From contig JBDKLC010000005.1 of assembly GCA_039795775.1 (NCBI GenBank), positions 312,638-376,637 on the forward strand: a stretch of DNA of 64,000 nucleotides, in the 5' to 3' direction. Every line of letters starts with the position of its first letter. Position 1 is the first letter of the stretch. Positions 3,969 through 54,880 of this stretch are shown here, in pieces. Origin of the DNA: Candidatus Parcubacteria bacterium (GTDB taxonomy: Bacteria > Patescibacteriota > Minisyncoccia > Phycocordibacterales > CAIZLB01). The position numbers and the translations under genes are program-made. The notes beneath the pieces are model-generated. The model was not told the origin of the DNA. It worked only from the letters and a program-made list of their open reading frames with translations, and ran no database searches.

Positions 3969-3995
3969 AAAAAGTAGGAATATTTCCTACTTTTT
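3969..3995. terminator. Palindromic bidirectional intrinsic terminator (A-tract, GTAGGAAT/ATTCCTAC hairpin, T-tract), copy 1 of 5
   Basis: Perfect palindrome AAAAAGTAGGAATATTTCCTACTTTTT, immediately downstream of the minus-strand gene 4042..4860. Confidence 0.7.
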
Positions 3996-4041
3996 ACTTT
4001 ATACTAGTTTGAGGTATTTATTGAATTGAACTGAAAAATTA

Positions 4042-4860
4042 CTATACCTTCTTTTTAGATTTAGTTTCTTTCCCCTCTGCTGCTAATTTTGGTTTATGAC
4101 TCAAAAAATGGTCTTTAAACGCATTGCCTGCATCTGTTCGATATCGGCAGTAGTCACATGTAGCGCTTTCTTTTGGAATAGCATCAGAATCGAGGCATTC
4201 CTTGATTCTGCCAAGCGTATCATCAATCCAGTCTGCATTTCCCTTGTATGGAATGACTTTAATATTAAATTCAAGGCGTGAATCAAAACCGTCTCGGTCT
4301 TTTGTAGCATTTGCGTATACGAAGTATCCAGTATCAGATACATCAAAGCCACGGTTACGTAAAAGCCACTGATATACCTCCATTTGCCGTTTATAGCCGT
4401 CTTGCCACTCTGCATCGAGATTTACCTCACTATCCTTACTTGTCGACTTATAATCGACTACAATCAATTCTCCTTTCTTATTTATCCAAACATCATCTAC
4501 TGCACCAAAGATCAAAAAGTTTGTTGGTTCATGGTAAAACTGAACACCAACAAAGTTTTCTCGCCATGTATCCATTTCGTCATGTGCGAACGGAATAGCA
4601 TCGATTTTGTTTTCTGACATAAGTGGATGGGCCGTAGAGTCAGCACGGTGGACATCAAACTCTTTTTTCAAAAGATGATCTACAGCACTGTTGAGGTTGA
4701 AGGGAAAACTAGCAGGGCGGCCAACACCTAATCGACGGTCAAGATAAAAACACCGTGGACACTCAATAAACATATCGATTTTTGATCGACTGAGTTTGAA
4801 TTGCTCCTTACTTTTAGGGTCGTATTTTTTGACCCATTTTTTGCCAGTTGAAAATGCCAT
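4042..4860 (-). CDS. PD-(D/E)xK nuclease, Cas4/RecB-like, with four Cys (putative Fe-S staple)
   Basis: IVVDYKS and EVYQW (D/ExK) core. N-terminal CPRC and C-terminal CDYC cysteine pairs fit the Cas4/AddB-type Fe-S nuclease architecture. Separated by 2 nt from the upstream gene. Confidence 0.65.
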   Translation of the reverse strand: MAFSTGKKWVKKYDPKSKEQFKLSRSKIDMFIECPRCFYLDRRLGVGRPASFPFNLNSAVDHLLKKEFDVHRADSTAHPLMSENKIDAIPFAHDEMDTWRENFVGVQFYHEPTNFLIFGAVDDVWINKKGELIVVDYKSTSKDSEVNLDAEWQDGYKRQMEVYQWLLRNRGFDVSDTGYFVYANATKDRDGFDSRLEFNIKVIPYKGNADWIDDTLGRIKECLDSDAIPKESATCDYCRYRTDAGNAFKDHFLSHKPKLAAEGKETKSKKKV

Positions 4861-4862
4861 GA

Positions 4863-5732
4863 TTATGAATTCATTATAGACCCAATTTCCTCTAACATAC
4901 TAACTATCTTAGATTCGCTGAATCCGAGATCCTTTAGTTGTTGTGAGCTATTGTACACACTCCTACAGAGTACCATTTTGTGAGTAATGAGAAGCTGTTT
5001 TTCAGCTGGTGTGATTGTTGTGAGAGCTGTCACTGGGTGCAGCTTTGTCTCTTCGATCATATCTCTGAGGTTTCCAACCAGCGGATAATCCCAACTCATC
5101 ATATTGAGTTTGTTACATTCACCATACTTGATAGCTGTTTCTGTGAACTTTGTGTTTGTAATAAGCCATCCTTCTGCAAGTTTTCGAGGCATTTTTCCAT
5201 AGTCGTAAACGTTACTTGCAAGATCTTCATACCGAGCCTTTACATAAAGCGCAACTTTGAGATCGGTCTTACCTGAAGGTTCATTGTGATATTTCACTTC
5301 AGCCATAATGAGTTTATTTTGATTCCAAGCAACAACATCCACTTCGTGAGGAACGCAACTACCAAAGACTACTTGTCCTGTAAGGGCTTCAAAACCTTTT
5401 GCTTTGAACAACTCAGTGACATAAACCTCAAATGGAAAACCAGTTGGACCAAATTCCATAAGAGATCGTCGGAGCGAATATCGGAGCGCCGCGGGTCGAG
5501 CACGTTCTTTGAGCTCATGAAATGCTTTTTTATAAATATCAGACGCTGTTGTATCAATAATCTGATGTTCTGAGATCTGGTGAACAATAGATTTTACGAC
5601 ACTTTCAGCGACATGCTCATCTGCACCTGATTTTATGAGAGAGGTTTTTAATTTGCTTGTCTGAAACTCTTCTTTACTACCGTCTTCTTTTTGGATGTAT
5701 ATCTTTGATTGCATACTACGAAAGTATACCAC
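4863..5732 (-). CDS. ATP-cone domain fused to Mrr-like PD-(D/E)xK restriction-endonuclease domain
   Basis: N-terminal ATP-cone-like segment (KIYIQKEDGSKEEF...KLKTSLIKSG). Downstream HEVDVVAW...AEVKY nuclease core. Overlaps the mnmA 3' end by 17 nt. Confidence 0.6.
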   Translation of the reverse strand: MVYFRSMQSKIYIQKEDGSKEEFQTSKLKTSLIKSGADEHVAESVVKSIVHQISEHQIIDTTASDIYKKAFHELKERARPAALRYSLRRSLMEFGPTGFPFEVYVTELFKAKGFEALTGQVVFGSCVPHEVDVVAWNQNKLIMAEVKYHNEPSGKTDLKVALYVKARYEDLASNVYDYGKMPRKLAEGWLITNTKFTETAIKYGECNKLNMMSWDYPLVGNLRDMIEETKLHPVTALTTITPAEKQLLITHKMVLCRSVYNSSQQLKDLGFSESKIVSMLEEIGSIMNS

Positions 5733-6798
5733 CGCCTATGCACTTCGAACCACTGTAGATAACTATAGATTGTCCTGGTGTAAGGGCCGTCTGCGGTTGA
5801 TCAAAAGAAACTGAATATTGTCCGCTGTTTCCTTTTGAAATACGACATGTTTGTTTTTGCTGTCTGTATCGCGATCGAGCTTCATATGATTTTGTAAGGT
5901 CTGGTTCAGTAATAGTCCAATTTACAGATGTAAGTTCAACTGTTTTTGGCATATAATCTCCTTTTTTAAAAATATCTTGTGGCACTACCGTAATTATGTT
6001 TTTTTCGAGGTCTTTTGCAACAATATAATGAGGTGTGTCATCTGGTCGAGTGATTGTCAGTCGGAAACCATGTCGTTCACCAATTGTATACAAGAGTGAA
6101 CCGTCATGTTCGCCTATGATTGCTCCATGTGCATCAAGTACGGCCCCCTTTTCTGTTTGTATATATTCCTTTAAGAACTCCTTCATATCTACATGCCCGA
6201 GGAAGCAGATTCCCTGACTGTCTTTTTTATCAAATACTGGCAACTTATATTTCTCAGCAAGTTTTCGAACCTCAGGCTTTAGCAAGTGACCAATTGGGAA
6301 CAATGTGTGTTTGAGGTCCTTCTGATTGAGGGTCCATAAGAAATAGCTTTGATCTTTGTTAGGATCTTTTCCTTCGTGCATTTCACTTGCTTCTAGCGTC
6401 ACTATATTTTGAGCATAGTGACCTGTAGCGATAAAATCCGCACCTTGTTTCAGTGCCTCATCAAGAAACGAGCCGAATTTAATCTGCCGATTACACATCA
6501 CATCTGGGTTAGGAGTTCGCCCAAGCTTGTATTCGTTGATCATATAGTCCACTACGTCTTTTTTGTATCGTTCTGCAAAATCAAACGTAAGAAATGTAAT
6601 ATCAAGAGCCGCTGCTACGCGCATTGCATCTCGTCGTTCATCTTTCCATGTGCATTCGCCATTTTCTGGCTGCCATACTTTTATAAAAACACCTGTCACA
6701 TCGTAGCCTGCCAATTTCAAAAGAAGTGCTGATACAGAAGAATCAACACCGCCAGACATACCAACAAATACTTTAGGTTTTTTTGAAATACTCTTCAT
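5716..6798 (-). CDS. mnmA: tRNA-specific 2-thiouridylase MnmA
   Basis: PP-loop SGGVDSS at the N-terminus, MnmA-length protein, conserved catalytic-Cys context. Confidence 0.9.
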   Translation of the reverse strand: MKSISKKPKVFVGMSGGVDSSVSALLLKLAGYDVTGVFIKVWQPENGECTWKDERRDAMRVAAALDITFLTFDFAERYKKDVVDYMINEYKLGRTPNPDVMCNRQIKFGSFLDEALKQGADFIATGHYAQNIVTLEASEMHEGKDPNKDQSYFLWTLNQKDLKHTLFPIGHLLKPEVRKLAEKYKLPVFDKKDSQGICFLGHVDMKEFLKEYIQTEKGAVLDAHGAIIGEHDGSLLYTIGERHGFRLTITRPDDTPHYIVAKDLEKNIITVVPQDIFKKGDYMPKTVELTSVNWTITEPDLTKSYEARSRYRQQKQTCRISKGNSGQYSVSFDQPQTALTPGQSIVIYSGSKCIGGGILS

Positions 6799-6828
6799 AG
6801 AAGATATGCCAGACTGAGCCTATGAAAT

Positions 6829-7821
6829 TTACTTTAGATACTTATTCTTAAGGCGTACATGCTCATCATGAGTCTTAGCAAAATGAGTTATACCATCTTT
6901 ATCCGAAAGAAAGAAGAGGTAGTCGTTTGGAATGGGGCGAAGTGCAGCCTCGATACTTTGAATTCCTGGATTTGAAATCGGTGTTGGAGGAAGACCTTTA
7001 TTTGTGTAGGTGTTATAAGGTGAATTCACTTTGAGGTCATTTAGTGTAAGTTGAGCCGATGTTTTTCCGTTTACATATGTAAATGTGCTATCTACCTGAA
7101 GCGGCATTCCAATTTCTATTCTTCGCCACAAAAGATCTGCAACCATTTTTCTGTCTTGTTCTGTTTGTACCTCACCTTCTAGGATTGAAGCCATAATAAT
7201 AATATCTTTCATACTATGCGATGAACTAGCAATTTCCTGCTCATACGGCTTCAATTGCTTTTTAAAAATACTGCCCATCATAGTAATAATCATTTCAGAC
7301 GATGCTTTGGGCGGAAAGAAATACGTATTTGGAAAGAGATATCCTTCTTTACCCTGTATTGATACTAAGAATGAATCTCGATCAATATCTGGGAACTTCT
7401 CATGGATAACGTCGGCTATCTTAAATACATTTGTACCTTCAGGAATTGTGACTTTTGTTGGAATATATCCATAATCACCATTCACCACACGTCGGGCAAT
7501 ACGAATGACATTCTGAGGTTTATTAAATTCATACATTCCTGCTGATATTTTGTGTTCACCACCGAGGAGAATAATTGCACTTCGAAGTACGATGCTAGAT
7601 TTCACAACCCCTCTGTCTCTCAGTTCATTAGCAATACTAGTAAGACTTTGTCCTGATTCGATTTGGACTGTTGTGCCGGCCACAAAGTTAAATGGAGCAG
7701 CAAATACAAATGTATAAATAATAGAAGCAAATGTAATGATGACGAACGTGAAAACACTAATGAACGCCACTAGTAAGAAACTTAAAGATTTTTTCTTTTT
7801 AGGGATATAGAGATCGTCCAT
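6829..7821 (-). CDS. mltG: Endolytic murein transglycosylase MltG/YceG family
   Basis: N-terminal TM helix and a YceG-like domain with the GLPPTPISNP motif. Start moved to the internal Met (MDDLY) to avoid overlap with the upstream gene. Confidence 0.8.
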   Translation of the reverse strand: MDDLYIPKKKKSLSFLLVAFISVFTFVIITFASIIYTFVFAAPFNFVAGTTVQIESGQSLTSIANELRDRGVVKSSIVLRSAIILLGGEHKISAGMYEFNKPQNVIRIARRVVNGDYGYIPTKVTIPEGTNVFKIADVIHEKFPDIDRDSFLVSIQGKEGYLFPNTYFFPPKASSEMIITMMGSIFKKQLKPYEQEIASSSHSMKDIIIMASILEGEVQTEQDRKMVADLLWRRIEIGMPLQVDSTFTYVNGKTSAQLTLNDLKVNSPYNTYTNKGLPPTPISNPGIQSIEAALRPIPNDYLFFLSDKDGITHFAKTHDEHVRLKNKYLK

Positions 7822-7828
7822 GTAGTGA

Positions 7829-9082: not shown

Positions 9083-9163
9083 GTGTCTATTTTAACTTGT
9101 TATCTGCCAAGACGGAAGAGGAAAAGAAAAGACCTCGATATGCTCGGGGTCTTTTTCTTCAAA

Positions 9164-10207: not shown

Positions 10208-10283
10208 ATAAGTTATACTTTATTTTTAGCACATCCTGTTAAATACGTCAAGTTTTTGTCAATATTTGACTATTGTCTAATAC

Positions 10284-13139
10284 TTACAATCCTGGGACTA
10301 CAATATTCACCAACTTTCCTTTAACGTAGATTACTCTAGCTGGTGTCTTATCCCCTATTCGTGCCTTAATCTTGTCCATTAATAGCACCATTGATTTTAC
10401 TTCTTCCTCATCATCTGTGTGACTTACAAATGTTTCTCGTACTTTGCCGTTAATTTGAACAACAATCTTCCATGTATCTGACTGAAGTTTCTTTGGATCA
10501 AATTCTTGCCATGGCATTGTGTGGATACTCTTCTTATTTCCAAGTTCTGCCCAAATTTCTTCTGTCACATGTGGAGCAATTGGAGCGAGGAGTTGGAGAA
10601 GCACTTCGTATTCGTTTCTGTAAACTGTTTCTTCTTTCTCGAGTGCGTTGAGCAAAATCATAAGAGATGAAACTGCTGTGTTGAATCCCATCGATTCTAT
10701 ATCATCTCCCACCTTCTTGATTGTCTGATTGATGATGAGTTCAAGATGCTTTCGCGAGCCATCTGTAGGTGCTTTTTTCTTTGTAACTACGTTTTCCTCA
10801 AGATTGTAAACTCGTTCGATGAATCGTCGTGAACCAATCATGTTTGAGGTGTTCCACGCGATAGCCTGATCGAATGGTCCCATGAACATTTCGTACACTC
10901 GGAGCGTATCAGCGCCATAGAGAGCAACGAGTTCGTCAGGACTTACCGTATTTCCCTTAGATTTAGACATTTTTTCTCCGCCTTCGGCCAAGATAAGTCC
11001 ATGAGATGTTCGTTTCTGATACGGTTCTTTTGTTGGAACCACACCAATGTCATACAAGAACTTGTGCCAGAATCGAGAATACAATAAGTGGAGCGTTGTG
11101 TGTTCCATTCCTCCATTGTACCAATCGATTGGTGTCCAATACTTAAGATTTTTTTCTGAAGCGAGTGCTTTTTTATTCTTTGAATCTGCATATCGGAGAT
11201 AGTACCAACTTGAACCAGCCCACTGGGGCATAGTGTCAGTTTCTCGTTTTGCAGGTCCCTTACATGTTGGACACTTTGTATTCACCCATTTTGTAAGCGT
11301 CGCAAGTGGAGACTCACCTGTATCAGTTGGAGCAAACTCTTTGATTGTAGGAAGCTTGAGCGGTAATTCTTTTTCAGGAAGAGCTACAATTCCGCACTTT
11401 TCACATGTTACGACTGGAATTGGTTCACCCCAGTATCGCTGCCGAGAGAAAATCCAATCTCGGAGTTTGTACTTTACTACCATCTTGCCACCAACTGCCT
11501 TTGTAATGTCTTTCTTTGCTTGTTCTGATGAAATACCATCAAACTTTTGTGAGTTAAAGAGTGTTCCTTCACCCAAGAATGGCTGCTTATCAATAAACTT
11601 CGCAAACCCATATACGTGAAGTATTTCTTTTACCTCTTTTCGAGCTCGATCTACCGGAAGCCACTCGAGAACAAATTTATTCTTTTCATTTTCTTCGAGG
11701 GCAGTCTCTTTTTGTGTCAGACTATTCAATCTAATATGAACAAATGTTGTTTTTGCTTCAAATGCTTTATTTTTTGAATGAGCAAAATATCGATACGTAA
11801 ATGTTTCCTCACTCACATCAACGATTTTTGCATCTGTATATCCTGTTTCTTCTGCAAGTTCTCGGATAGCTGTCACCTGTGGCAACTCACCCTGTTCAAC
11901 AGTACCTCCAACAAAAAGTCTTCCACCAAGCTCTGGTTTCCAGTTTATTGTGAGAATATTTCCCTTTCCGTCTTCTACAATAGCGACAATTTTGTTTTTG
12001 AGCTCAAATGACTTCACACCGGCCACGTCTGGTCGTTCATGAATAGGATTAAGTACTGGCTTGAAAGGAAGATTGTATTTGAGAGCAAAGACATGGTCTC
12101 GAGCATCGTGAGCAGGTACGGCCATAACTGCTCCAGTACCATATGAAGCCAATACATAGTCTGCAATCCAAACAGGAATTTCTTCTCCGTTTACTGGGTT
12201 GATAGCAACAACGCCTTTGAGTACGACACCAGTTTTTTCTTTTCCTTCTGCAGTTCGTTCGATTTCGGCTACGCCTTTGAGAGACTCAATATATTCTTCT
12301 ACTTCAGAATAATTTGAAATATTCTTTGAAAGTTTTTTAACAAGCTCGTGCTCAGGTGCAAGTACAACATATGTCACGCCAAACAACGTATCCGCTCGTG
12401 TCGTAAATACAGTGATTGTTTCTTCTGTACCTTTTATTTTAAATGAAAGTTCTGCCCCCTCGCTTCGTCCAATCCAGTTTCGTTGCTGAATTTTGATCTT
12501 TTCAAGGTAATCGACATCGTCGAGATCTTTGTCGAGTCGATCGGCATATTTTGTAATAGCGAGGATCCACTGATTCTTGTCTTTCTTAGTTACTTCAGTA
12601 CCACATCGTTCACATTTGCCATCAATAACTTCTTCGTTAGCAAGTACGGTCTTATCTTTTGGACACCAGTTTACATGTGTCATTTTCTTGAAAGCGAGAC
12701 CTTTCTTAAACATTTGCAAAAAGATCCACTGTGTCCACTTGTAGTATTCAGGGTCTGTAGTATTCACTTCTCGTGACCAATCAAAAGAAATACCGAGTGC
12801 CTTGAGCTGTCGTCTGAAGTTATCAGTGTTTGTTTTTGTTACTTTTGCAGGTTGAATGCCTGTCTTGATAGCGTAGTTTTCTGTAGGAAGGCCGAATGCA
12901 TCCCAACCAATTGGATACAACACGTTTTCACCTTGAGCTCGTCTCTTTCGGGCTACGGCATCCATAGCGGCATAACTTCGGATATGCCCAGTGTGAAGAC
13001 CCGCTCCAGATGGGAATGGGAATTCAATGAGGCCGTAAAACTTTTTAGCTTTACTTGTGTCAGAGGCTCGGTACATCTTTTTTGTTTCCCAAACCTTCTG
13101 CCATTTCTTCTCTATTTTCTTGTGGTCGTATTTGTTCAT
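10284..13139 (-). CDS. leuS: Leucyl-tRNA synthetase with an inserted NUDIX hydrolase domain
   Basis: HIGH motif (HTGHIRSY), KMSKS, editing-domain motifs (TTRADT, GTGAVMAVPAHD). A ~150-aa insertion carries a perfect Nudix box, GGTVEQGELPQVTAIRELAEETGY. Confidence 0.9.
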   Translation of the reverse strand: MNKYDHKKIEKKWQKVWETKKMYRASDTSKAKKFYGLIEFPFPSGAGLHTGHIRSYAAMDAVARKRRAQGENVLYPIGWDAFGLPTENYAIKTGIQPAKVTKTNTDNFRRQLKALGISFDWSREVNTTDPEYYKWTQWIFLQMFKKGLAFKKMTHVNWCPKDKTVLANEEVIDGKCERCGTEVTKKDKNQWILAITKYADRLDKDLDDVDYLEKIKIQQRNWIGRSEGAELSFKIKGTEETITVFTTRADTLFGVTYVVLAPEHELVKKLSKNISNYSEVEEYIESLKGVAEIERTAEGKEKTGVVLKGVVAINPVNGEEIPVWIADYVLASYGTGAVMAVPAHDARDHVFALKYNLPFKPVLNPIHERPDVAGVKSFELKNKIVAIVEDGKGNILTINWKPELGGRLFVGGTVEQGELPQVTAIRELAEETGYTDAKIVDVSEETFTYRYFAHSKNKAFEAKTTFVHIRLNSLTQKETALEENEKNKFVLEWLPVDRARKEVKEILHVYGFAKFIDKQPFLGEGTLFNSQKFDGISSEQAKKDITKAVGGKMVVKYKLRDWIFSRQRYWGEPIPVVTCEKCGIVALPEKELPLKLPTIKEFAPTDTGESPLATLTKWVNTKCPTCKGPAKRETDTMPQWAGSSWYYLRYADSKNKKALASEKNLKYWTPIDWYNGGMEHTTLHLLYSRFWHKFLYDIGVVPTKEPYQKRTSHGLILAEGGEKMSKSKGNTVSPDELVALYGADTLRVYEMFMGPFDQAIAWNTSNMIGSRRFIERVYNLEENVVTKKKAPTDGSRKHLELIINQTIKKVGDDIESMGFNTAVSSLMILLNALEKEETVYRNEYEVLLQLLAPIAPHVTEEIWAELGNKKSIHTMPWQEFDPKKLQSDTWKIVVQINGKVRETFVSHTDDEEEVKSMVLLMDKIKARIGDKTPARVIYVKGKLVNIVVPGL

Positions 13140-13145
13140 AAATAA

Positions 13146-21274: not shown

Positions 21275-22531
21275 CTAGAGTCCGAGATCTGTACCACCTA
21301 CCTTTGGAATACTATTCACAACAGGTGTTGTATTAGGAGCAACGTCAGAATTCTGAGTGTTTGGTGTTGTGACAGTTGTTGTTGGAGTGCTTGTAGCATC
21401 TGTAGATGTTGCAGATGTAGATGAAGCTGTATCTGTAGTAGATGCAATAGCAGTAGCAGCTGCACTCGTTGTTGTGGTCTCAATTAGTTTTCGCACAGCA
21501 ATATGTGCATTCTTTTCAGTATCAAGAATACTTTGTGCATCACTTGCCGCTCGGTCTGCTTGCTGTACAACGAGAATTACATCTGAAAACTGTTTATTGA
21601 TTTTGTATGAAATAGCTTTTTCAAGTGCTCGATCCGCTTCTGCAAGCTTCACACCTACAGCTACAACTGTATTGATAGCAGTTTGAGGATGAGCTGCTGC
21701 CAATCGATTCTTTGCATCTTTGAGGTCTCGTACCTTGTCTGATACTTCTTTGATTTTTAATTCTGCCTTAGTTGAACTGTTACCTGCAAGTGCGATCTCT
21801 TTATTCTGGAGATCAACTCGAGCTACGGTACTTGTAGCAAGTTCGTCTTGAATAGTAGCAAGAAGCGCAGTAACACTCGCTTGATCTTCTGGAGTTGAAG
21901 ACGATGTATCTGCAGCATCAGCGATAGCTACTTTTGCAAACAACTCTTCGTGAGCTTTGAGTGATGACTCAAAGTTAAGAGCAATTTCTTGCGCAGCTGC
22001 AATATTATTTTCTGAAATAAGTGACGCCACCTGGTTTTTCACCTGACTCGCCTGTTTTTTAAATTCTTGCTGAACAATAGCTTTTCGTTCAGTTGTAAGT
22101 TTGCCTTGTACTGAAAGTGTAGCCGCTTCTTGGAGTCGTCGTTCACTTACTTCGAGAGCAAGTCGCGCTTTTGCTTCAGCTGAAACTGCAGCAAAACTAA
22201 GCACTTCTTCATTTACCTTCTTGAGGCCGAAGAGTGAATCACCTGGAAGAGCTCGCTCAGCAGCAAGTGATACCCCGCCAGACACAAAGAGAAGCATCGC
22301 TATAACAAATGCCGGTACAAACTTTTTATATTCAATATATGAAACGATTCGGTCAATAAATGGAGACTTGATAGGTCGAGAACTTGTAGGAGAAGAAATA
22401 GACACAGCTTCAATTTTGTCCACAACCAAAAGAACTCTATTCAACACCTCTTCCTTTTCAGTCTGGGAGAGATGAATAGATTTTATTCTTGAAATTAATT
22501 TTTCTAGTCTTTTATCAATCATTTTTTTCAA
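21275..22531 (-). CDS. Putative anti-sigma factor / membrane protein with Thr/Ser-rich C-terminal tail
   Basis: Overlaps the ECF sigma gene upstream. Single TM helix, a coiled alanine-rich extracytoplasmic region and a T/S-rich tail. Confidence 0.55.
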   Translation of the reverse strand: MKKMIDKRLEKLISRIKSIHLSQTEKEEVLNRVLLVVDKIEAVSISSPTSSRPIKSPFIDRIVSYIEYKKFVPAFVIAMLLFVSGGVSLAAERALPGDSLFGLKKVNEEVLSFAAVSAEAKARLALEVSERRLQEAATLSVQGKLTTERKAIVQQEFKKQASQVKNQVASLISENNIAAAQEIALNFESSLKAHEELFAKVAIADAADTSSSTPEDQASVTALLATIQDELATSTVARVDLQNKEIALAGNSSTKAELKIKEVSDKVRDLKDAKNRLAAAHPQTAINTVVAVGVKLAEADRALEKAISYKINKQFSDVILVVQQADRAASDAQSILDTEKNAHIAVRKLIETTTTSAAATAIASTTDTASSTSATSTDATSTPTTTVTTPNTQNSDVAPNTTPVVNSIPKVGGTDLGL

Positions 22532-24010: not shown

Positions 24011-25306
24011 CTACATACACAGAGCAATTCCCACAAACGGAATATTTATTCTGCGTTCTCGAAAACCAACATGCTTTGATTCATAGTCGCTTTTTTGTAA
24101 TGCAGACATGCTCGATCCCAGAAACACTGTATGGCTGCCAAAGGTTTTGTTGAGATCGTCCACGACAGAAAATACTTTATCACTCGATTCAGCTATTTCA
24201 CTTTGTCCAAATAGATCCCTTGTCACCGCTTCTTCTTCGATCAAGCTGCGCAATGTGATGCCAGATGTTCGATAGAGTGTGCGTGCATTGTATACCTGAT
24301 CAAAATACTGCCGAACAACTTTGAGAAGCTCGTTTGGTGATGACGTAGCCAACGGCAGGTTTATTTCGACACTCCGATACCGAAATTCAGACGTCTTGAG
24401 ATAAAACGTAATCGCACGACTAGATACTCCATGAAAGCGGGCTTTTTCACAAGCCATCTCTATATTTTTTGAAAGTTGAGAAAATATGAATTGTCTATCT
24501 GACGTCGCAGGAGTAAAGGTACGAGACTTCATAATAGAACCGATATCACTCGCAGGTGACGCCGCTGTCGATAACTCTTTTACAAAATATCCCTGAAACT
24601 CAAGCCAAATCTCTTTGTATGGTTTCGCTATTTGATTCACTCGCATCCACGCGTCGTCTTTTATTGCAAAGTCGTATGCCGTCTCAATTCCCCTCTGTCT
24701 CAAATACATAGACATAGCGCCACCAATTCCCCACACTTTGTGAATCGGCAATTGTTTTATAAAACTCACTATGTCTTCTTTTTTTATAACAGTAAATCCC
24801 GCAGGCTTCTTGTGCTTTGATGCTACTTTGGCCAGTACTTTGTTTGGAGCAAGCCCCACACCAAATGTAATACCAAGTTTCATTTCAAGATCTTTCTTTA
24901 TATTGAATGCGTACTCAGCGTGGGTCATACCGTGTGGCAATGTCACATCGGTGATATCAGCAAAACATTCATCTATACTGTATTCCTCTACGTGAGGCGT
25001 GTATCGACGCACGATGTTGTACATGCGCCGCGCAAATATGCAGTACATTTCATAATCAGAATCTAAAAGAATTGCTTCGGGACATACTTTTTTTATTTCA
25101 CCAATACGCATACCTCGTGTCACACCTTTGGCTTTTGCCTCATAACTAAAAGCCGCAGCAATACCACGCTCGAGACCCGTAATAACAGGCTTACCTTTGA
25201 GTTTGTGATTCTTGGCTTGTTCTACAGATGCAAAAAAAGCATCACCATCTATGTGAAGAATGTATCGAGACTTATGTGGAATTGATGATAAACGAGGAGA
25301 ATTCAT
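24011..25306 (-). CDS. umuC: Y-family translesion DNA polymerase (UmuC/DinB-like)
   Basis: N-terminal ILHIDGDAFFASVE catalytic motif of Y-family polymerases. Immediately downstream of the S24 peptidase gene. Confidence 0.85.
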   Translation of the reverse strand: MNSPRLSSIPHKSRYILHIDGDAFFASVEQAKNHKLKGKPVITGLERGIAAAFSYEAKAKGVTRGMRIGEIKKVCPEAILLDSDYEMYCIFARRMYNIVRRYTPHVEEYSIDECFADITDVTLPHGMTHAEYAFNIKKDLEMKLGITFGVGLAPNKVLAKVASKHKKPAGFTVIKKEDIVSFIKQLPIHKVWGIGGAMSMYLRQRGIETAYDFAIKDDAWMRVNQIAKPYKEIWLEFQGYFVKELSTAASPASDIGSIMKSRTFTPATSDRQFIFSQLSKNIEMACEKARFHGVSSRAITFYLKTSEFRYRSVEINLPLATSSPNELLKVVRQYFDQVYNARTLYRTSGITLRSLIEEEAVTRDLFGQSEIAESSDKVFSVVDDLNKTFGSHTVFLGSSMSALQKSDYESKHVGFRERRINIPFVGIALCM

Positions 25307-25312
25307 GTTTGA

Positions 25313-25726
25313 TCACTTGTGATACGTACGAAATGTGGATACAACAACACCAACAATCTGCCCATCTCTTGGAAAGATTGGCTCGTAGAGATCATTTGCG
25401 GCCTCAAGATACAGCCGACCATCTGATGTCTTTTGCAAATACTTGAGCGTATAGCCATCTTCTATAAGAGCCACGACAATGTCTCCTGTCTTGCAGTCAG
25501 TGGTACGTTGAAATACAACATAGTCGCCATCAAGTATGCCGGCATCCTGCATTGAATCTCCTTGCACACGCAACAAATACGAAGAATCTTTATCTTGAAT
25601 AAGATACTGCTCAAGGTTGATAGTCTCAGAGAGCTCTTCTTCTCCAGGAGAAGCAAATCCAGCGCGAATATACCCAAGAAACGGAATCTGAATTCCGGAC
25701 GCGTTTTTATTTTTTTTGAAATGCAT
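25313..25726 (-). CDS. umuD: UmuD-like S24 peptidase (LexA C-terminal domain only, no HTH)
   Basis: GDSM Ser nucleophile and a downstream Lys (the ALIEDGYTLKYL segment). About 137 aa with no DNA-binding domain. Confidence 0.75.
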   Translation of the reverse strand: MHFKKNKNASGIQIPFLGYIRAGFASPGEEELSETINLEQYLIQDKDSSYLLRVQGDSMQDAGILDGDYVVFQRTTDCKTGDIVVALIEDGYTLKYLQKTSDGRLYLEAANDLYEPIFPRDGQIVGVVVSTFRTYHK

Positions 25727-26015
25727 GAACACCAGGTTTCATAAACGAATCAGTCATAGACACAAACGCTCGTCGGGCATCAAGCAATGAAATACTTGAT
25801 TCTTGGAGTTCATCACGAGAAATAAATACAGGAAACCAATTGTCGACAAAAAACTCACGGCCCTTGCCATCAAACGTTCTCTGACCTCGTCGCTTTGATT
25901 GCCATGGGAGACGATGAAACCCGACATCATTTGTATTTGTAAAAAATCGCTCATGTTCAGTCTCTTCAGGGTGAACATAGCCTTCTTTATAAATATGCGG
26001 AGTTTGTATAGACAT
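25707..26015 (-). CDS. Hypothetical protein overlapping umuD start
   Basis: A 102-aa ORF co-directional with umuDC and overlapping it by 20 nt. No motif. Confidence 0.35.
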   Translation of the reverse strand: MSIQTPHIYKEGYVHPEETEHERFFTNTNDVGFHRLPWQSKRRGQRTFDGKGREFFVDNWFPVFISRDELQESSISLLDARRAFVSMTDSFMKPGVHAFQKK

Positions 26016-27348: not shown

Positions 27349-27380
27349 ATCACCAGCTTACACTATTGCTCTAAATTGGT

Positions 27381-27434
27381 CCAAAACAAAAAACGCGTCA
27401 TGGACGACCCTAATTCGAGTTGTCCCTGACACGT
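27381..27434 (-). terminator. Intrinsic terminator downstream of the 2OG oxygenase gene
   Basis: Imperfect 16-bp hairpin followed on the minus strand by TTTTTGTTTTGG. Confidence 0.55.
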
Positions 27435-27489
27435 TTTGATTTGTATGAATTATTTCTACTTTTTCGAAGTGTGATCAGCCATGGAGTAT

Positions 27490-33776: not shown

Positions 33777-33809
33777 ACAGCCCCCGAAATGGAGGCTGTT
33801 CTTTTATTT
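33777..33809. terminator. Hairpin + T-run (AACAGCC/GGCTGTT), forming with the next 19 nt a diverged copy of the tRNA-Ala 3' end-plus-terminator unit
   Basis: 7-bp stem with an 11-nt loop, followed by CTTTTATTTG and then the 19-nt tRNA 3'-end copy. Confidence 0.5.
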
Positions 33810-33821
33810 GTGGACCCTACA

Positions 33822-33925
33822 GGATTCGGTCACAGGTCTCGCCGACATGCGGCTCGCCCGCGACCCCGCCTCCCTCGTCTCGGTTCGCCTTGCTCACAAC
33901 GAGACTTCAGTCCGGCTTTCTCATC
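33822..33925. repeat. GC-rich ~100-nt tRNA-associated structured element, copy 1 (candidate ncRNA or mini-insertion)
   Basis: Shares a 52-nt identical 5' module and a 19-nt 3' module with the copy at 60009..60109. The variable centre forms a hairpin in both copies. Flanked by a 19-nt direct repeat of the tRNA-Ala 3' end. Confidence 0.6.
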
Positions 33926-33943
33926 AAGTAGCTCAGGAAATAG

Positions 33944-33980
33944 AAAACACCAGATATATCGTCTGGTGTTTTCTATTTCT
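33944..33980. terminator. Bidirectional intrinsic terminator between element copy 1 and tRNA-Ala
   Basis: 8-bp stem ACACCAGA/TCTGGTGT flanked by an A-run and a T-run. Confidence 0.65.
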
Positions 33981-33981
33981 G

Positions 33982-34054
33982 TGGACCCTACAGGATTCGA
34001 ACCTGCCACCCCCTCAGTGCAAATGAGGTGCTCTACCAAATGAGCTAAGGGCCC
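33982..34054 (-). tRNA. tRNA-Ala (anticodon TGC)
   Basis: Manual cloverleaf: acceptor GGGCCCT/AGGGTCC with the G3:U70 Ala identity pair, D arm GCTC...GAGC, anticodon loop TTTGCAC, T-loop TTCGAAT. CCA is not encoded. Confidence 0.9.
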
Positions 34055-40823: not shown

Positions 40824-41444
40824 TTAGGGTATTGGTGTAGTCCGAAACGGAATGTGATTCAGGTAGTGAAGCGCTAGGGCATAATTGTCTGCCCAATCCA
40901 TCATTTGCATTCCGTTGACTGGAATTACTTTGATTGGAAATTGCGAGGACAATCCACTCAGCGCTTGAAGTGCAGGCACCGTGTCTCGAACGTAATCTTC
41001 GAGTCTTCTGTCGATGTCTTCATCATCCTTACGTCCCCGGTCGATAGCACGTTGACGACACTCTTCGATAGGTGTATCCACCCATACTAGTGTGATGTTA
41101 TCCAGGCCCAACTCAGACATGAGCGAGATAGCGAGCGGAACCTGATCCCCTAGACGAACGAATCCGTCGAGTAGAATGTTTGACGCCGCCTCTCGAACTT
41201 TTCTGAGCTCTGCTCTGAGCGGATCAATGAGCATTTCCGTAGGTGCAAGCGTGTGCTTTGTCCTTTGCTTATACTCCTTCATCCTGATGCCGATAGGTGT
41301 GTTACCTTCTTCTTCCTTCCGGCAAACATCTCCGCAGCCTATCATGGCTACTTCGAGCTTCGTGTGAATCGCTTTGACAAGAGTTCCTTTTCCTCCATTC
41401 GGTGGCCCAGCAACTAGTATCAAACCGCTTTCTATTTTCTCCAT
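40824..41444 (-). CDS. Adenylate kinase-like P-loop nucleoside monophosphate kinase (divergent)
   Basis: GPPNGGKGT Walker A and an LLDGF motif, both as in Adk. Start set at MEKIESG. Confidence 0.55.
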   Translation of the reverse strand: MEKIESGLILVAGPPNGGKGTLVKAIHTKLEVAMIGCGDVCRKEEEGNTPIGIRMKEYKQRTKHTLAPTEMLIDPLRAELRKVREAASNILLDGFVRLGDQVPLAISLMSELGLDNITLVWVDTPIEECRQRAIDRGRKDDEDIDRRLEDYVRDTVPALQALSGLSSQFPIKVIPVNGMQMMDWADNYALALHYLNHIPFRTTPIP

Positions 41445-41660
41445 TTTAATCCTCCAAGGTTGAATGTTCAAATCTAGCCCCTCTTTCCAGGGTTTAGGAA
41501 AGTAGCCAGACCAAAATCCTACCACACGATTTTACTTTCATCAAGGTCGTTGAGACACTTATAATTAATGAATTCTGATATATAAATTTAATATATACAG
41601 CTTCGTATATATTCGTATATAAAGATAAAGAAGATAAAATATGTATAAAAACATCTCCTA

Positions 41661-41691
41661 GTAAAAAGTAGGAATAATTCCTACTTTTTAC
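41661..41691. terminator. Palindromic bidirectional terminator, copy 2 of 5
   Basis: GTAAAAAGTAGGAATAATTCCTACTTTTTAC. Confidence 0.7.
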
Positions 41692-42080
41692 TTTGATAGA
41701 AATTATATATATCAGATATATACGACACCTCTTCAAATTGCTAAAAAAGACTGACACTCTATATTCACACTCTCCCCCTTGAAATCATAAAAAAACAGCG
41801 TATAGTATATTTCCAGAGGGAACGCTGCCAACGTTCAAAGGCATTCTTTAGTCGTTTCGCAAGAAATGGCAACCCAAAGAGTGTATGAGGTCACGGCATA
41901 ACCCAAGTAGAAACCAAGCACGAATGCAAACGCATCCAAGCACAGCAGATAGCGAAAACATGGTCCATCCACAAGGAGGCCAATATACGCTATCCTACAA
42001 GGCGGGTAACTATATCCGCCACCTCGGTCCCGGCCGTTTTCCGCGCATCCTGCTCGGCGACTAACCTCGCCATCATCGGT

Positions 42081-42128
42081 TTACCCCGATACAAATCAGG
42101 CCAGACTCCACCACGGAGCCTGGCCTGA
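42081..42128 (-). terminator. Intrinsic terminator of uvrB
   Basis: 9-bp stem TCAGGCCAG/CTGGCCTGA followed on the minus strand by TTTGTAT. Confidence 0.6.
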
Positions 42129-42143
42129 ATCATTTCTACTTTA

Positions 42144-44216: not shown

Positions 44217-44381
44217 ATATGTGTATGTATGAGTATGAGCGCAAAAATGCGTGATTACCTAGACTATATCATAGAGGGTCATACGCACGAAAGATGTGTT
44301 TAATTTGCTGCGCAAATAACGTTTGAATACGTGCTGAAAACTGTTAAAAAAAGATCAACTATAGTGCAAAAGGTACAAAAT

Positions 44382-44408
44382 AAAAAGTAGGAATAATTCC
44401 TACTTTTT
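44382..44408. terminator. Palindromic bidirectional terminator, copy 3 of 5
   Basis: AAAAAGTAGGAATAATTCCTACTTTTT downstream of tgt. Degenerate half-copies follow at 44440..44475. Confidence 0.7.
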
Positions 44409-44513
44409 ACTTATATAGTTTTCTATATATATTTATATGAATTAATATAAATGTATCCCTACTTTTATTCCTACTTTTGTCTCTACTTTATATCTGCCTT
44501 TATATTTACATTC

Positions 44514-45845: not shown

Positions 45846-45976
45846 GAAAGATTTATAACATAATTTAAATAAATATACCTAATGTCGTCCCGTACAAAAG
45901 TTCAGCCAGGTCGTCAACGGACGCCTGGCTGTGTGAACTTTATGTTCCCCCTTTCGGTTGGGTTGTTGAGTTGTAG

Positions 45977-46522: not shown

Positions 46523-46908
46523 CGAAGTGCCAAATGTGTCTCTGAGCGAAAGCTTGTGGCTATCGCATTACAGAGTTGTACGGAGCTGGCTGTGGAATAT
46601 ATGTATATCCCGAAGTGTTTGTACCGAGTGCTGTCGGTACTGATCCTTGCAAGTTATGAACGTCGCGTTCGATCTGCGTTGCGATGTCCATCGGCATGCT
46701 CAGAGCTCCAAAGAACTGTTTGAGGGCAATTCCAAGCGCAAGTGATGCACTCAGAAAAAAAATCCCGGCAGCGACGCCGAGTACGAACAACATGGTATTT
46801 CCTTTTACCATAATGTTAATGATTAAAGGGGGCTTTCGAAAAGCCGACATGCTGTTCGTATTGGCGTGTGCCAATCTTCCCCCTCTTTCGAGGCAATCGT
46901 GAGGTCGC

Positions 46909-46955
46909 ATGCAAGCGAGGATGTACAACTGTATTCTATGCAGACGTCGCTTGCA
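46909..46955. repeat. 10-bp inverted repeat with 28-nt spacer
   Basis: ATGCAAGCGA ... TCGCTTGCAT. Confidence 0.55.
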
Positions 46956-46957
46956 TA

Positions 46958-46988
46958 TAAAAAGGCGACCATTTGAGCGGTCGCCTTT
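46958..46988. terminator. Bidirectional intrinsic terminator (AAGGCGACC/GGTCGCCTT)
   Basis: 9-bp stem with an 8-nt loop, flanked by AAAAA and TTTT. Confidence 0.65.
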
Positions 46989-47176
46989 TCCTCACTAGCT
47001 AGAAACCTTGCGATCGCTCCCGAAAGAGGGGGACGATGTAAAGGTGCTTCAGTAGTAGTATAACGTCTTATAGGGGTTTTGCAAGCCGAATTTAGCCAAT
47101 TATATAGAGGGTTAAATTGATATATTGTGGCATGGGAGAATTGATATATAGGATATATGTATAGTTTGTAACCATA

Positions 47177-47205
47177 GTAAAAGTAGGAATGTTTCTTACT
47201 TTTAC
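47177..47205. terminator. Palindromic terminator family, degenerate copy 4 of 5
   Basis: GTAAAAGTAGGAATGTTTCTTACTTTTAC, with one mismatch in the arm. Confidence 0.5.
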
Positions 47206-47345
47206 AAACAGTGAGTTGTATATGTTTGTTGGGAAAAGCCATCGAATTCCCTATTTTTAAAATTTAAAAACAAAAGACCCACCCGAAAGTGAGAATTTTG
47301 TGAAATTCCCAATCGGGTGGGTCGCGTGGATATTCGAAACGAATC

Positions 47346-47744
47346 TTATAGTTTGTTCCAAACAGCTCTTGGGAGCCTCCTGCGATCCAGCAAGTGGTCC
47401 GCCATCAAGAAACTGGCAGTGAACTGGCCCTCATCGCTTTCAATGGAGCCCTCAAAGACCACACCGGCAACGCCACCAAGTCGTGCGCGTTGCCCTTCTG
47501 TGGTGACAAGGCCCTCCATGGTTTCTGAACCGATATTTTGCGATGTTTTACGCTTTCGGAACATTTCATGGGCAGTTTGCACAAGCAGCGTGCGATCTGC
47601 ATCGCTAAGTGGCCTTCCAGACGTTGTGAAGCAGTAGAATGACTGTGACATAAGTGTATAATCTCGACGTATTTGGTTGTAGGTTGACGTACCCGGGTTT
47701 GGGTACGGAACGTGTTCTAGTAGTTCAGCAATATTAAAGCACAA
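47346..47744 (-). CDS. Hypothetical protein, GC-rich
   Basis: A 132-aa ORF with elevated GC. No motif. Confidence 0.45.
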   Translation of the reverse strand: MCFNIAELLEHVPYPNPGTSTYNQIRRDYTLMSQSFYCFTTSGRPLSDADRTLLVQTAHEMFRKRKTSQNIGSETMEGLVTTEGQRARLGGVAGVVFEGSIESDEGQFTASFLMADHLLDRRRLPRAVWNKL

Positions 47745-47772
47745 ATATAGAAAAAGTAAACCACTCTGCAGA

Positions 47773-49035: not shown

Positions 49036-49091
49036 ATTTGCACTTAGTATACTACAATTGTATGAAATTTCTCTAACTTTTTCCTCAAGAT

Positions 49092-50081: not shown

Positions 50082-50086
50082 AGGAA

Positions 50087-51361: not shown

Positions 51362-51425
51362 ATGTTCAGCTTATTTTTAGCTATTTTTTATGAATTCATC
51401 ATACCAAATGGCTTAGATTGAGACA

Positions 51426-52424
51426 ATGAAGACAAAAAACGACCCTCATGGGACAAATGACCGCACCAGTTCCGGTAGCGGAACTCTCGTACAACCACAT
51501 ACTATATATATGAGGGAATACGGTCCTCTCCTCAGCCAGATTTCTGACCCTCCCAAGCAGCTCTTTACCGCTGGAGACCACACACTCATATCATCGGCGT
51601 TGCTTGATCAGACGTTTGATGTACCAGGCTACGAGCCAGCTAATATCAAGTTTCTTTGTGTAATTGGTTCACGTAAATTTACAGACTACGGCAAAACAAT
51701 TTGTGAGTCGCTGATCAAGAGTCTCGAAGGCTTGCCAGTCATTATTGTTTCGGGTCTGGCACTTGGTATAGATAGCATTGCCCACCGCTCGGCAATCCTC
51801 CATGGACTTAAAACCATTGCGGTACCAGGATCCGGACTTCATCCCTCTGTCCTCTACCCCCGTTCCCATTTCAATTTAGCAAATGAAATCATCGAAAAAG
51901 GCGGACTCATTCTTTCCGAATATGCACCGAATACACCAGCCAGTCCGTGGAGCTTTCCTATTCGAAACAGAATTATGGCAGGTTTATCACATTCAATACT
52001 TATTATTGAAGCTGAAGAAGATTCAGGTACCCTCATAACTGCTCGTCTTGCTCTTGAATACAACAGAGATGTGGGCGTTATACCGGGCTCAGTTTTTTCC
52101 TCTACTTCAAAAGGTCCTCATGGTCTTCTGACGAAAGGAGCTGCACCTATTACATCTGGAGATGATCTCATCAAACACCTTGGATTCAAAAAGCTAGAAA
52201 ATGCTTCCTCCTATCAACCGTCACTCTTTTCACAGTGCTCTTCTGACGAAAAAAGAATCCTCGCATTGCTCACCGAACCGCGTACTCGTGATGAACTCGT
52301 AAAGCAATCAAACATGTCAGTGAGCCATGTACAAATACTTCTCTCAATGCTTGAAATCCGCAAACTTATAAAAGAAGAATATGGAAATATTTATCTCATT
52401 CATCCGTTTATACAAGAGAAGTAA
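51426..52424 (+). CDS. dprA: DNA processing protein DprA (Smf)
   Basis: Rossmann-like DprA core (IVSGLALGIDSIAHRSAIL..GLKTIAVPGSGL). Conserved synteny with topA. Confidence 0.85.
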   Translation: MKTKNDPHGTNDRTSSGSGTLVQPHTIYMREYGPLLSQISDPPKQLFTAGDHTLISSALLDQTFDVPGYEPANIKFLCVIGSRKFTDYGKTICESLIKSLEGLPVIIVSGLALGIDSIAHRSAILHGLKTIAVPGSGLHPSVLYPRSHFNLANEIIEKGGLILSEYAPNTPASPWSFPIRNRIMAGLSHSILIIEAEEDSGTLITARLALEYNRDVGVIPGSVFSSTSKGPHGLLTKGAAPITSGDDLIKHLGFKKLENASSYQPSLFSQCSSDEKRILALLTEPRTRDELVKQSNMSVSHVQILLSMLEIRKLIKEEYGNIYLIHPFIQEK

Positions 52425-52449
52425 TTGTGACGGGTAAAACACCACATAT

Positions 52450-54786
52450 TTGTCAAAATTAGAAAACCTGTGCAATACTACGCTTATGGCAACAGCCTCA
52501 CATTCAAATTCATCAGCAAAAAAACTCGTCATTGTAGAGTCACCTGCAAAAGCAAAAACAGTTGCTAAGTATCTTGGAAGTGATTACAAAGTGGTAGCTT
52601 CTGTAGGTCACGTACGAGATCTCCCTAAGAGTAATAAAAAAGCTATTGATATTGCAAAAGGGTTTGTTCCTCACTATGAAGTTTCTCCAGGAAAAGAAAA
52701 AGTTATTGCTGAAATCAAAGCAATGGCGAAAGATGCAAAAGAAGTACTCATCGCTACCGACCCCGACCGAGAAGGAGAAGCTATTGCATGGCACATCAAA
52801 GAAGTACTTGGCCTCAAACATCCAAAGCGAGTTGTGTTCCGAGAAATTACAGAAAATGTGGTGCGTGAAGCGGTTCTTAATCCTCGAGAAATTGACGACA
52901 ACCTCAAACAGGCACAAGAAGCCCGACGAGTGCTCGACCGACTTGTAGGATACGACCTCTCTGGTCTCATTTGGAAAAAAGTTCGATACGGTCTTTCTGC
53001 TGGCCGAGTACAATCTCCGGCTCTCCGAATAATTATGGAACGAGAACGAGAAATTCGCGCGTTCATTCCTGAAAAATTCTATGTGATCAAAGCTGATACA
53101 AAGACAAAAGGCAGCGAGGCACTTTCTCTCTACTGTACAGACGAACCTCGAGACAAAAAGATTGCTGATCATATTATCGAACAAGGTAAGTCTCACGACT
53201 GGAATGTCATCGATGTACAAGAATCAGAAGTAAAACGATCTCCAAAGGCACCATTTATCACGTCTACTCTTCAGCAAGCAGCAAGTACACGTCTTGGGTT
53301 CGCGCCATCACGAACAATGGGTCTCGCACAAAAGCTGTACGAAGCTGGCCATATTTCATACATGCGAACTGACAGTACCAACTTGAGTAAAGTAGCTGTA
53401 GAGCAAGCAGTAAAAGTGATCGAATCAGAATTCGGGAAAGATTATGTTATGACTCGAGTATATGCTTCAAAGAGTAAGAATGCTCAAGAAGCGCACGAAG
53501 CTATTCGACCTACACACCTTGGTGTAGTAGATGCTGGTGCAAACGATGACGAAAAGAAACTCTACCGACTCATCCGTGCTCGAACTCTCGCCTCTCAAAT
53601 GGCTGACGCACGAACAGCACGAACAAAAATTATCGCAAACATTGTTGGTGTATCATCAAATAGCAAAGATGCTATTCCTGATTTCTCAGCAACTGGCTCA
53701 CGTGTTATCTACGATGGTTGGCTCAAGGCTGATCCTGCAGCACGTGGCGAAGATGTAGAACTTCCTAAAGTAGCACCTGGTGAACCACTCAAGCTTCTTG
53801 ATATTGCAGCCGAAGAAAAAACAACAGAACCTCCATCTCGATATACAGAAGCGGGTCTCATCAAAGAACTCGAAAAACGAGGTATTGGCCGACCGTCTAC
53901 ATTCGCAAGTATTATTCGAACACTCGAAGAACGAGCATATGTAGAAAAAGTAAACAAAGCGCTTGTGCCAACTGACACCGGTGATGTAGTAAGTTCATTC
54001 CTCGAACAAAACTTCGAATCATATATCAGTGACAACTTCACTGCTGAAATGGAAGACAAACTCGACGATATTGCTATCGGCAAAGGAAAATATCTTCAAA
54101 CTCTCAAAGATTTCTATGGTCCATTTACAAAAGAAGTAAAAGCAAAAGAAAGTATCGACAAACTCACAACACTCGGTGATGCTGATGCAAAATTCGTTTG
54201 TCCAAAGTGCGCCAGCTCAATGGTTGTGAAGCTTTCACGAGCCGGCAAGTTTTTGAGTTGTTCTCGATATCCAGATTGCGACGGCGCGCTCACCATAGAC
54301 GGAAAAGAAATTCAGAAGGATGCACCTCTCGGTGTTGATCCTGAGACTTCCCTTCCTATCTTCGTAAAAGTTGGACGATATGGTCCGTATGTACAGCTCG
54401 GTGAAAAGACAAAAGAAAACAAAAAGCCACGTATGGCGAGTATTCCAAAAACATTTGATCCTGAGAATATTACTGTAGAAAATGCTTTGAAGTTCTTGTC
54501 GCTTCCTCGAAAGTTAGGACCTCACCCAGAGACTGGCGATACTATTTCTGCCAATGTTGGAATGTTTGGGCCGTATGTAGTACACCAAAAAGATTTCAGA
54601 TCACTCAAAACTGACGATGTATACACCATCACCCTCGACCGAGCTATCGAAATCTTCAAGGAACCAAAGAAAATCGGCCGTCGTGGTGGCTTCAAGAAAA
54701 AGACTGATGCAGAAAAAACGACTGACACCGCAACAACTACCGCTCCCGACGAAAAACTAGCACCAAAGAAGAAGTCTAAAAAATAG
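52450..54786 (+). CDS. topA: DNA topoisomerase I
   Basis: TOPRIM N-terminus (LVIVESPAKAKTV), active-site Tyr region and C-terminal Zn-ribbon Cys (CPKC ... CSRYPDC). Confidence 0.95.
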   Translation: MSKLENLCNTTLMATASHSNSSAKKLVIVESPAKAKTVAKYLGSDYKVVASVGHVRDLPKSNKKAIDIAKGFVPHYEVSPGKEKVIAEIKAMAKDAKEVLIATDPDREGEAIAWHIKEVLGLKHPKRVVFREITENVVREAVLNPREIDDNLKQAQEARRVLDRLVGYDLSGLIWKKVRYGLSAGRVQSPALRIIMEREREIRAFIPEKFYVIKADTKTKGSEALSLYCTDEPRDKKIADHIIEQGKSHDWNVIDVQESEVKRSPKAPFITSTLQQAASTRLGFAPSRTMGLAQKLYEAGHISYMRTDSTNLSKVAVEQAVKVIESEFGKDYVMTRVYASKSKNAQEAHEAIRPTHLGVVDAGANDDEKKLYRLIRARTLASQMADARTARTKIIANIVGVSSNSKDAIPDFSATGSRVIYDGWLKADPAARGEDVELPKVAPGEPLKLLDIAAEEKTTEPPSRYTEAGLIKELEKRGIGRPSTFASIIRTLEERAYVEKVNKALVPTDTGDVVSSFLEQNFESYISDNFTAEMEDKLDDIAIGKGKYLQTLKDFYGPFTKEVKAKESIDKLTTLGDADAKFVCPKCASSMVVKLSRAGKFLSCSRYPDCDGALTIDGKEIQKDAPLGVDPETSLPIFVKVGRYGPYVQLGEKTKENKKPRMASIPKTFDPENITVENALKFLSLPRKLGPHPETGDTISANVGMFGPYVVHQKDFRSLKTDDVYTITLDRAIEIFKEPKKIGRRGGFKKKTDAEKTTDTATTTAPDEKLAPKKKSKK

Positions 54787-54853
54787 TTTTTGCTTTTGCT
54801 ATTGCTGTTGCTATAGTGCGATGTAACAATACTATAAGCTAGTGCGTATATAG

Positions 54854-54880
54854 AAAAAGTAGGAATAATTCCTACTTTTT
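54854..54880. terminator. Palindromic bidirectional terminator, copy 5 of 5 (between convergent topA and parB)
   Basis: AAAAAGTAGGAATAATTCCTACTTTTT. Confidence 0.75.

Follow-up and report, generated by a model that had tools for sequence, protein, structure and literature searches.

The 64-kb window analysed here (64,000 nucleotides of contig JBDKLC010000005.1, from an uncultured, ultrasmall Candidatus Parcubacteria bacterium) is ordinary chromosomal DNA of the Patescibacteria (candidate phyla radiation, CPR), Paceibacteria-like in its relationships. Its gene map consists to 90.1% of coding sequence. The best database relatives of its UvrB protein were 84% and 81% identical, and the named UvrB matches belonged to Paceibacterota, Taylorbacteria or the "Patescibacteria group". 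In two relatives the regions around uvrB were compared with the window, showing synteny from parB to ddl. The element under study is a short palindrome, AAAAAGTAGGAATAWTTCCTACTTTTT, which recurs between the genes of the window and forms its biggest repeat family.

Exact matches to the 27-mer were found at four sites: 3969–3995 (copy 1), 41663–41689 (copy 2), 44382–44408 (copy 3) and 54854–54880 (copy 5). Each is made of two 13-nt arms and one central base. Copy 1 deviates in the loop only, which reads TAT and not TAA. The number of exact matches in 100 dinucleotide-preserving shuffles was zero. An earlier note on this DNA had counted five copies, the one at 47177 with a single mismatch. This copy 4 is positioned at 47178–47204 (TAAAAGTAGGAATGTTTCTTACTTTTA) and has four mismatches to the 27-mer, two of its mismatches being counted in its 17-nt core, so that searches allowing up to three mismatches missed it. 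A profile made from the four intact copies recovered copy 4 at E = 1e-4; the decayed palindrome spans 47174–47207 (GTAAAAGTAGGAATGTTTCTTACTTTTAC). The same profile gave a marginal, likewise decayed sixth copy at 27443–27467 (GTATGAATTATTTCTACTTTTT, E = 0.04). The half-site remnants that the note had placed after copy 3 do exist. On the minus strand at 44455–44489, between copy 3 and the tgt stop, three tandem half-sites were read, AAAGTAGAGAC AAAAGTAGGAAT AAAAGTAGGGAT, which look like debris or partial copies. The 9-mer AGTAGGAAT occurred 9 times in the window, compared with 0.45 expected, always within or next to a palindrome site.

The full palindromes exceed 27 bp. They measure 37 bp in copy 1 (3964–4000, with 17-bp arms), 33 bp in copy 2 (41660–41692), 29 bp in copy 3 (44381–44409) and 41 bp in copy 5 (54847–54887, with 20-bp arms). 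The outer stems are AAAGT/ACTTT in copy 1, AGT/ACT in copy 2 and TATATAG/CTATATA in copy 5. Their letters differ but complementarity is kept, which points to a hairpin rather than to a duplex binding site. Copies 2 and 3 share 32 identical nt. In pairwise BLAST of the 800-bp neighbourhoods of the copies, similarity was limited to at most 38 nt, with nothing further, indicating that the unit copied was small. This unit has ~27–33 bp and can be written as (AGT)AAAAA-GTAGGAA-loop-TTCCTAC-TTTTT(ACT).

Public collections, from which the source genome was absent, were scanned with a 23-mer, allowing any loop for genomes and viruses and the observed loops for metagenomes. Among 185,579 species genomes, the 23-mer was present as 17 singletons in unrelated, mostly A + T-rich genomes, with unrelated flanks. 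Three more singletons were found in metagenomes and two in viral contigs. No locus with two copies was detected in the species genomes. Because the public matches were all isolated, the palindrome family is private to this lineage. Permissive Rfam searches around copies 2 and 4 returned nothing but noise matches to the hairpin itself. The sporadic singletons, each a terminator-like hairpin, could suggest that the family reflects nothing but chance similarity among A + T-rich terminators, or else an assembly artefact. We consider the probability of either negligible. Chance similarity would have to yield the exact 27-mer four times within 64 kb, and the shuffles together with the species-genome scan effectively refute it. 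With regard to an artefact, the flanks of the copies are unique, and the genes around them are intact and syntenic with the relatives.

All palindrome copies are intergenic, as the earlier note had stated. For four independent sites in a window of this coding density, this would happen by chance with P ~9e-5. A small-ORF check of all copies in the window found no credible open reading frame (ORF) over any of them. One candidate, a 139-aa ORF at 46823–47242 overlying copy 4, was rejected: it had no family match and covers both a terminator-like hairpin and a leader conserved in relatives.

The further claim that every copy lies immediately downstream of a gene end was borne out for copies 1, 3 and 5. 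Copy 1 is located 41 nt past the stop of a PD-(D/E)XK/Cas4-like gene (4042–4860, minus strand) and 164 nt ahead of the start of an ABC-F gene (3799, minus strand). Copy 3 is found 104 nt past the tgt stop, with the start of uvrB 164 nt further on. Copy 5 sits between the convergent genes topA (ending at 54786, plus strand, 60 nt away) and parB (ending at 54956, minus strand, 68 nt away), a position at which termination or 3′-end functions alone are expected. In the terminator search of the window, these three copies were the sole terminator-like hairpins downstream of their genes. Copies 2 and 4 are further from the preceding stop. Copy 2 follows the uvrB stop by 451 nt and lies beyond uvrB's own strong hairpin (42096–42128), from which a structured non-coding stretch of ~330 nt separates it. 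It precedes the annotated start of an adenylate-kinase-like gene by 134 nt. Copy 4 follows a stop at 138 nt and a strong, GC-rich private terminator (about 47278–47325) at ~70 nt. The sixth remnant, in the intergenic region 27349–27489, also abuts a strong private terminator, which means that both decayed copies adjoin such a structure.

Several features neighbour the copies. Upstream of copy 1, the PD-(D/E)XK/Cas4-like nuclease gene is paired with a gene for an ATP-cone and Mrr-type restriction-endonuclease-like protein (4863–5732, minus strand), and the two may form a defence or repair module. The structured stretch from the uvrB terminator to copy 2 (41760–42130, minus strand) comprises 330 nt of non-coding sequence with a minimum free energy of −150 kcal/mol (z = −5.5). 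It had no Rfam match and no credible ORF, and the relatives are without it, their uvrB-adk gap being 98–204 bp. The adenylate-kinase-like gene (40824–41525, minus strand), placed between uvrB and uvrA, showed no tblastn similarity to the syntenic ADK-family genes of the relatives and has either greatly diverged or been replaced by a non-orthologous gene. Close to copy 4, a leader-like non-coding element (46812–47090, minus strand) was recognized upstream of a small membrane-protein gene (about 46569–46811, minus strand). It has a promoter-like site, a long-range pairing of CCCCCTCTTTCG with CGAAAGAGGGGG and, internally, a terminator hairpin (about 46965–46992). Parts of it are kept in two relatives (L018, 1–65; L019, 7603–7659) with 79–91% identity, and no Rfam match was found. 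This element may be a riboswitch or an attenuator.

On either strand, the intact copies fold into a single hairpin, with −13 to −25 kcal/mol and z-scores from −3.6 to −9.4. For copy 1 the RNA hairpin reached −21.8 kcal/mol on the minus strand and −19.7 kcal/mol on the plus strand, and for copy 5 it reached −25.1 and −24.3 kcal/mol on the two strands. All four intact copies have the geometry of a bidirectional terminator, that is, five A residues, a stem, a 3-nt loop, a stem and five T residues. The A-tract/stem/T-tract form is shared by other terminators of the window, such as those after tRNA-Ala and tRNA-Tyr. The latter two hairpins sit in a repeated module of ~150 nt, in which the flanks are conserved and the inner stems differ by compensating changes. 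Such a pattern is ordinary terminator divergence. The palindrome family is the opposite, with an identical hairpin in unrelated flanks.

From these sequence features, we suggest with moderate confidence that the palindrome is a lineage-private, recently copied repeat serving as an intrinsic terminator, weak and bidirectional, or as a 3′ hairpin. RNA made from either strand of the unit would form a hairpin followed by five U residues, matched by five A residues upstream. Weak terminators may depend on NusA or NusG, and termination at the palindrome may need one of these factors, its core being so weak. The unit would probably act as a factor-assisted terminator in both directions and as a protective hairpin for 3′ ends, and would exert this role at operon ends that lack another terminator (copies 1, 3 and 5). 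That the copies agree letter for letter would result from recent copying of one sequence, and not from independent evolution of terminators. Either mobilisation in the manner of repetitive extragenic palindromes (REPs) or short-tract gene conversion is possible as the copying route. Copies landing beside a strong private terminator would be redundant and would decay, in agreement with the decay seen in copy 4 and the 27443 remnant.

A number of findings weigh against this interpretation, the strength of the stem among them. The G–C-containing core, GUAGGAA/UUCCUAC, is 7 bp long with three G–C pairs and a 3-nt loop. It gave −6.3 kcal/mol, and reached −11.5 kcal/mol only with the A and U tracts paired. 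About twenty other terminator-like hairpins in the window ranged from −8 to −30 kcal/mol, making the palindrome core the weakest among the terminator candidates. With so weak a core stem, efficient termination is not assured. In copy 4, the core has lost its fold on the transcribed (minus) strand. The bidirectional terminator proposed in the earlier note is backed by the geometry, by the fold on both strands and by copies 1, 3 and 5 as sole candidates at their sites, and is weakened by the core energy.

The placement and the sequence of the copies also raise difficulties for the terminator interpretation. Strong private terminators precede two of the five copies, one of which has decayed. Copy 2 is intact despite lying behind uvrB's strong hairpin, and it would need another transcript to end, perhaps one from the structured 41760–42130 region. 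Selection for structure alone is insufficient to explain why the 13-nt arms are identical in four copies, and this identity implies either recent copying or a sequence-specific constraint. Moreover, 64 kb is the whole extent of the genome that was examined.

The surroundings of the palindromes are likewise left unexplained by a terminator role. TATATA hexamers cluster around them: 18 of the 21 intergenic hexamers were located within 110 bp of a palindrome centre, a zone making up 16% of the intergenic DNA (binomial p = 3e-12, with overlapping matches that are not independent). The palindrome flanks contain 72% A + T, as opposed to 59% in the remaining intergenic DNA. The enrichment was seen around every copy, even around copy 5, where no promoter is expected. 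The TATATA-rich flanks may reflect a target preference. One could go further and propose, although we regard this as doubtful, that the palindrome with its A + T-rich, TATATA-dense surroundings is a hairpin recognized by a so far undescribed system for copying or binding in Patescibacteria. The system might be a REP-like replicator with an enzyme other than a REP-associated tyrosine transposase (RAYT), or a protein specific for the hairpin, by which operon boundaries or the sites where gene cassettes turn over are marked; we hold this specification to be equally doubtful. If true, no repeat family of this sort would have been described in the CPR before.

Neither of the two syntenic relatives had a copy of the motif, an enrichment of half-sites or a repeated palindrome family of its own. 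In the relative L019, a different private hairpin directly follows tgt. By analogy, this hairpin may be a functional replacement, and we count it in favour of a terminator role for the palindrome. At the site of copy 3, the relatives have an extra 163-aa ORF, and at the site of copy 5 an ASCH gene plus a 135-aa ORF. No homologue of these extra small genes was found in the window. The earlier note had suggested comparing orthologous intergenic regions for presence or absence of the palindrome as a sign of mobility. The comparison gave the absence, but at 81–84% protein identity intergenic DNA is not alignable, and so it cannot prove mobility.

The absence from relatives would also be expected of a selfish, non-autonomous hairpin similar to REPs or to their composite forms (REPINs), copied by an enzyme encoded elsewhere (Y1/HUH-type or other) and terminating transcription only incidentally. 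We see this as possible, if unlikely. The earlier note had drawn a parallel to REPs and bacterial interspersed mosaic elements (BIMEs), and part of it stands: the units are short and identical with unrelated flanks, they are extragenic and sited at 3′ ends, and half-site debris and decayed copies are present. Target-site duplications are lacking, in line with what is expected of IS200/IS605-type chemistry. TATATA is present on both sides at copy 5 only, and this hexamer is itself self-complementary. The palindrome further contains the GTAG tetranucleotide (PMC3479197). The defining anatomy of REPs is not there. REPs are imperfect, G + C-rich hairpins whose bulge is needed for binding; their conserved 5′ GTAG is single-stranded, and the elements are grouped around a RAYT gene (PMC3479197). 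In the palindrome, GTAG pairs with CTAC within the stem and the pairing is perfect. Copies number only 4–6 in 64 kb, although all are extragenic. Among the about 60 window proteins scanned, neither a Y1 (RAYT) nor any other transposase was detected, and the relatives, judged by their UvrB identity, are too distant for presence or absence to prove mobility. In Escherichia coli, REPs have dual effects, as terminators and as mRNA stabilisers (bioRxiv 10.64898/2026.03.23.713779). A miniature inverted-repeat transposable element was rejected as a candidate, given the similarity of at most 38 nt, the unrelated flanks and the lack of consistent direct duplications.

The invariant 13-nt arms would also be accounted for by a sequence-specific dimeric DNA-binding protein, with the palindrome as the operator of a global regulator, as a site for nucleoid or segregation proteins, or as a parS of non-canonical type. 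This is improbable in our view. The tandem half-sites near copy 3 have a spacing of 12 nt, copies 1–3 lie 134–164 nt upstream of the next gene, and parB adjoins copy 5 in a window without a canonical parS, all of which would suit such a site. The operator for a dimeric helix-turn-helix regulator, which the earlier note had considered equally plausible, is nevertheless disfavoured on several counts. At copy 5 there is no promoter that could be controlled. The ABC-F, kinase-like and uvrB genes, which lie downstream of copies, do not form a sensible regulon. Between copies, the outer stems vary in sequence while staying complementary, and the syntenic relatives are without the motif. No regulator gene was found next to any copy among the window proteins scanned. 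A LexA/SOS operator was rejected as well, since a copy precedes uvrB only and none was found at uvrA (start 40566) or at the umuD-like/Y-family polymerase pair (24011–25732).

As for segregation, the palindrome is unrelated in sequence to the conserved parS (TGTTNCACGTGAAACA), which led us to reject it as a parS. The window held no canonical parS, only one chance-level parS-like match with three mismatches elsewhere. In the 22-kb loci of the two relatives, searches allowing up to four mismatches gave chance-like matches only. The ParB of the window (parB 54956–56053, minus strand) has R/S/S/G at the four specificity positions of the alignment. By this residue mapping it would belong to the parS-specific RXXG class (PMC7383237), which speaks against its binding the palindrome. 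A ParB with recognition altered to fit a new site was also rejected, the residues being, by this mapping, of the canonical parS type.

The share of the palindrome among the terminator-like hairpins of the window, about a fifth to a quarter, recalls the DNA uptake sequences of Neisseria and Pasteurellaceae, which form 17–55% of terminator hairpins in some taxa (Kingsford et al., PMC1852404). Paired uptake sequences that a naturally competent CPR bacterium had turned into terminators would be an explanation. The window contains dprA, and natural competence is reportedly possible in Patescibacteria (PMC10633639). We nonetheless judge this explanation very improbable. Most uptake sequences are singletons, many of them within genes, and no singletons were found here in coding DNA. 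Under a third-order Markov model of the 64 kb, the half-site 7- and 8-mers occurred outside the palindromes at chance frequency. The density of the palindrome is ~1 per 7 kb, compared with ~1 per kb for uptake sequences.

Elsewhere in the window, we recognized a structured RNA candidate of ~110 nt downstream of tRNA-Ala and tRNA-Tyr, past a terminator-like hairpin (33805–33935 and 59995–60120, both on the minus strand, and 21945–22075, minus strand, in L018). On its 5′ side GAUGAGAAAGCCGGA is conserved, a variable stem shows compensatory changes with seven covarying pairs among the three sequences, and a GC-rich 3′ part of 66 nt is 94–97% conserved, including in a relative. No Rfam match was found. 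After the copy at tRNA-Ala, 20 nt from the 3′ end of the tRNA occur a second time (33809–33828 = 33980–33999), as at integration sites. The leucyl-tRNA synthetase (10284–13139, minus strand, 951 aa) has a NUDIX domain at residues 384–502 (E = 2e-13), an unusual insertion directly after the editing domain.

Should the terminator interpretation hold, even so streamlined a genome as that of a CPR bacterium would tolerate a self-copied palindrome and probably employ it to mark operon ends in general, in parallel to the REPs and the uptake-sequence terminators of well-studied bacteria. The palindrome would then be of use in the genetics now emerging for Patescibacteria, as a compact candidate for a bidirectional terminator, and could serve to trace recent copying within the genome. 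In the literature searched, we came across no account of repeat families or of terminators from Patescibacteria. Unless a dedicated enzyme or a binding protein emerges, the reach of these findings in biology is modest. The family is a minor lineage-specific curiosity and not a new kind of system, and it belongs with the known reused palindromic terminator-like repeats.

Bidirectional intrinsic terminators share with the palindrome an A-tract, a hairpin and a T-tract that can be read from both strands, and positions after stops and between convergent genes. The palindrome differs in its unusually weak core, the stems of such terminators being stable and usually G + C-rich, in the reuse of one sequence at several operons and in perfect pairing that runs through and past the A and T tracts. 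The REPs, BIMEs and REPINs of Enterobacteria and Pseudomonas resemble it as short (20–40 nt), lineage-specific extragenic palindromes at 3′ ends, recurring in identical form along with singlets and decayed copies. Unlike them, it is perfect and A + T-rich and has its GTAG in the stem, and no RAYT gene was seen within 64 kb. The dRS3 elements of Neisseria, with the mosaic elements that they belong to (NIME), are similar in being short intergenic inverted repeats at places where gene content varies among relatives, here at copies 3 and 5. The dRS3 layout of a 6-bp arm, an 8-nt spacer and a second 6-bp arm, the flanking of RS cassettes and the role as a target for prophage integration are particular to dRS3 and were not seen with the palindrome. 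With the uptake pairs of Neisseria and Pasteurellaceae, finally, it has in common that one short sequence, as an inverted pair, provides the stems of a sizeable share of terminators (PMC1852404). Uptake sequences are mostly singletons and abundant in coding DNA, whereas the palindrome half-site stays at chance level outside the palindromes.

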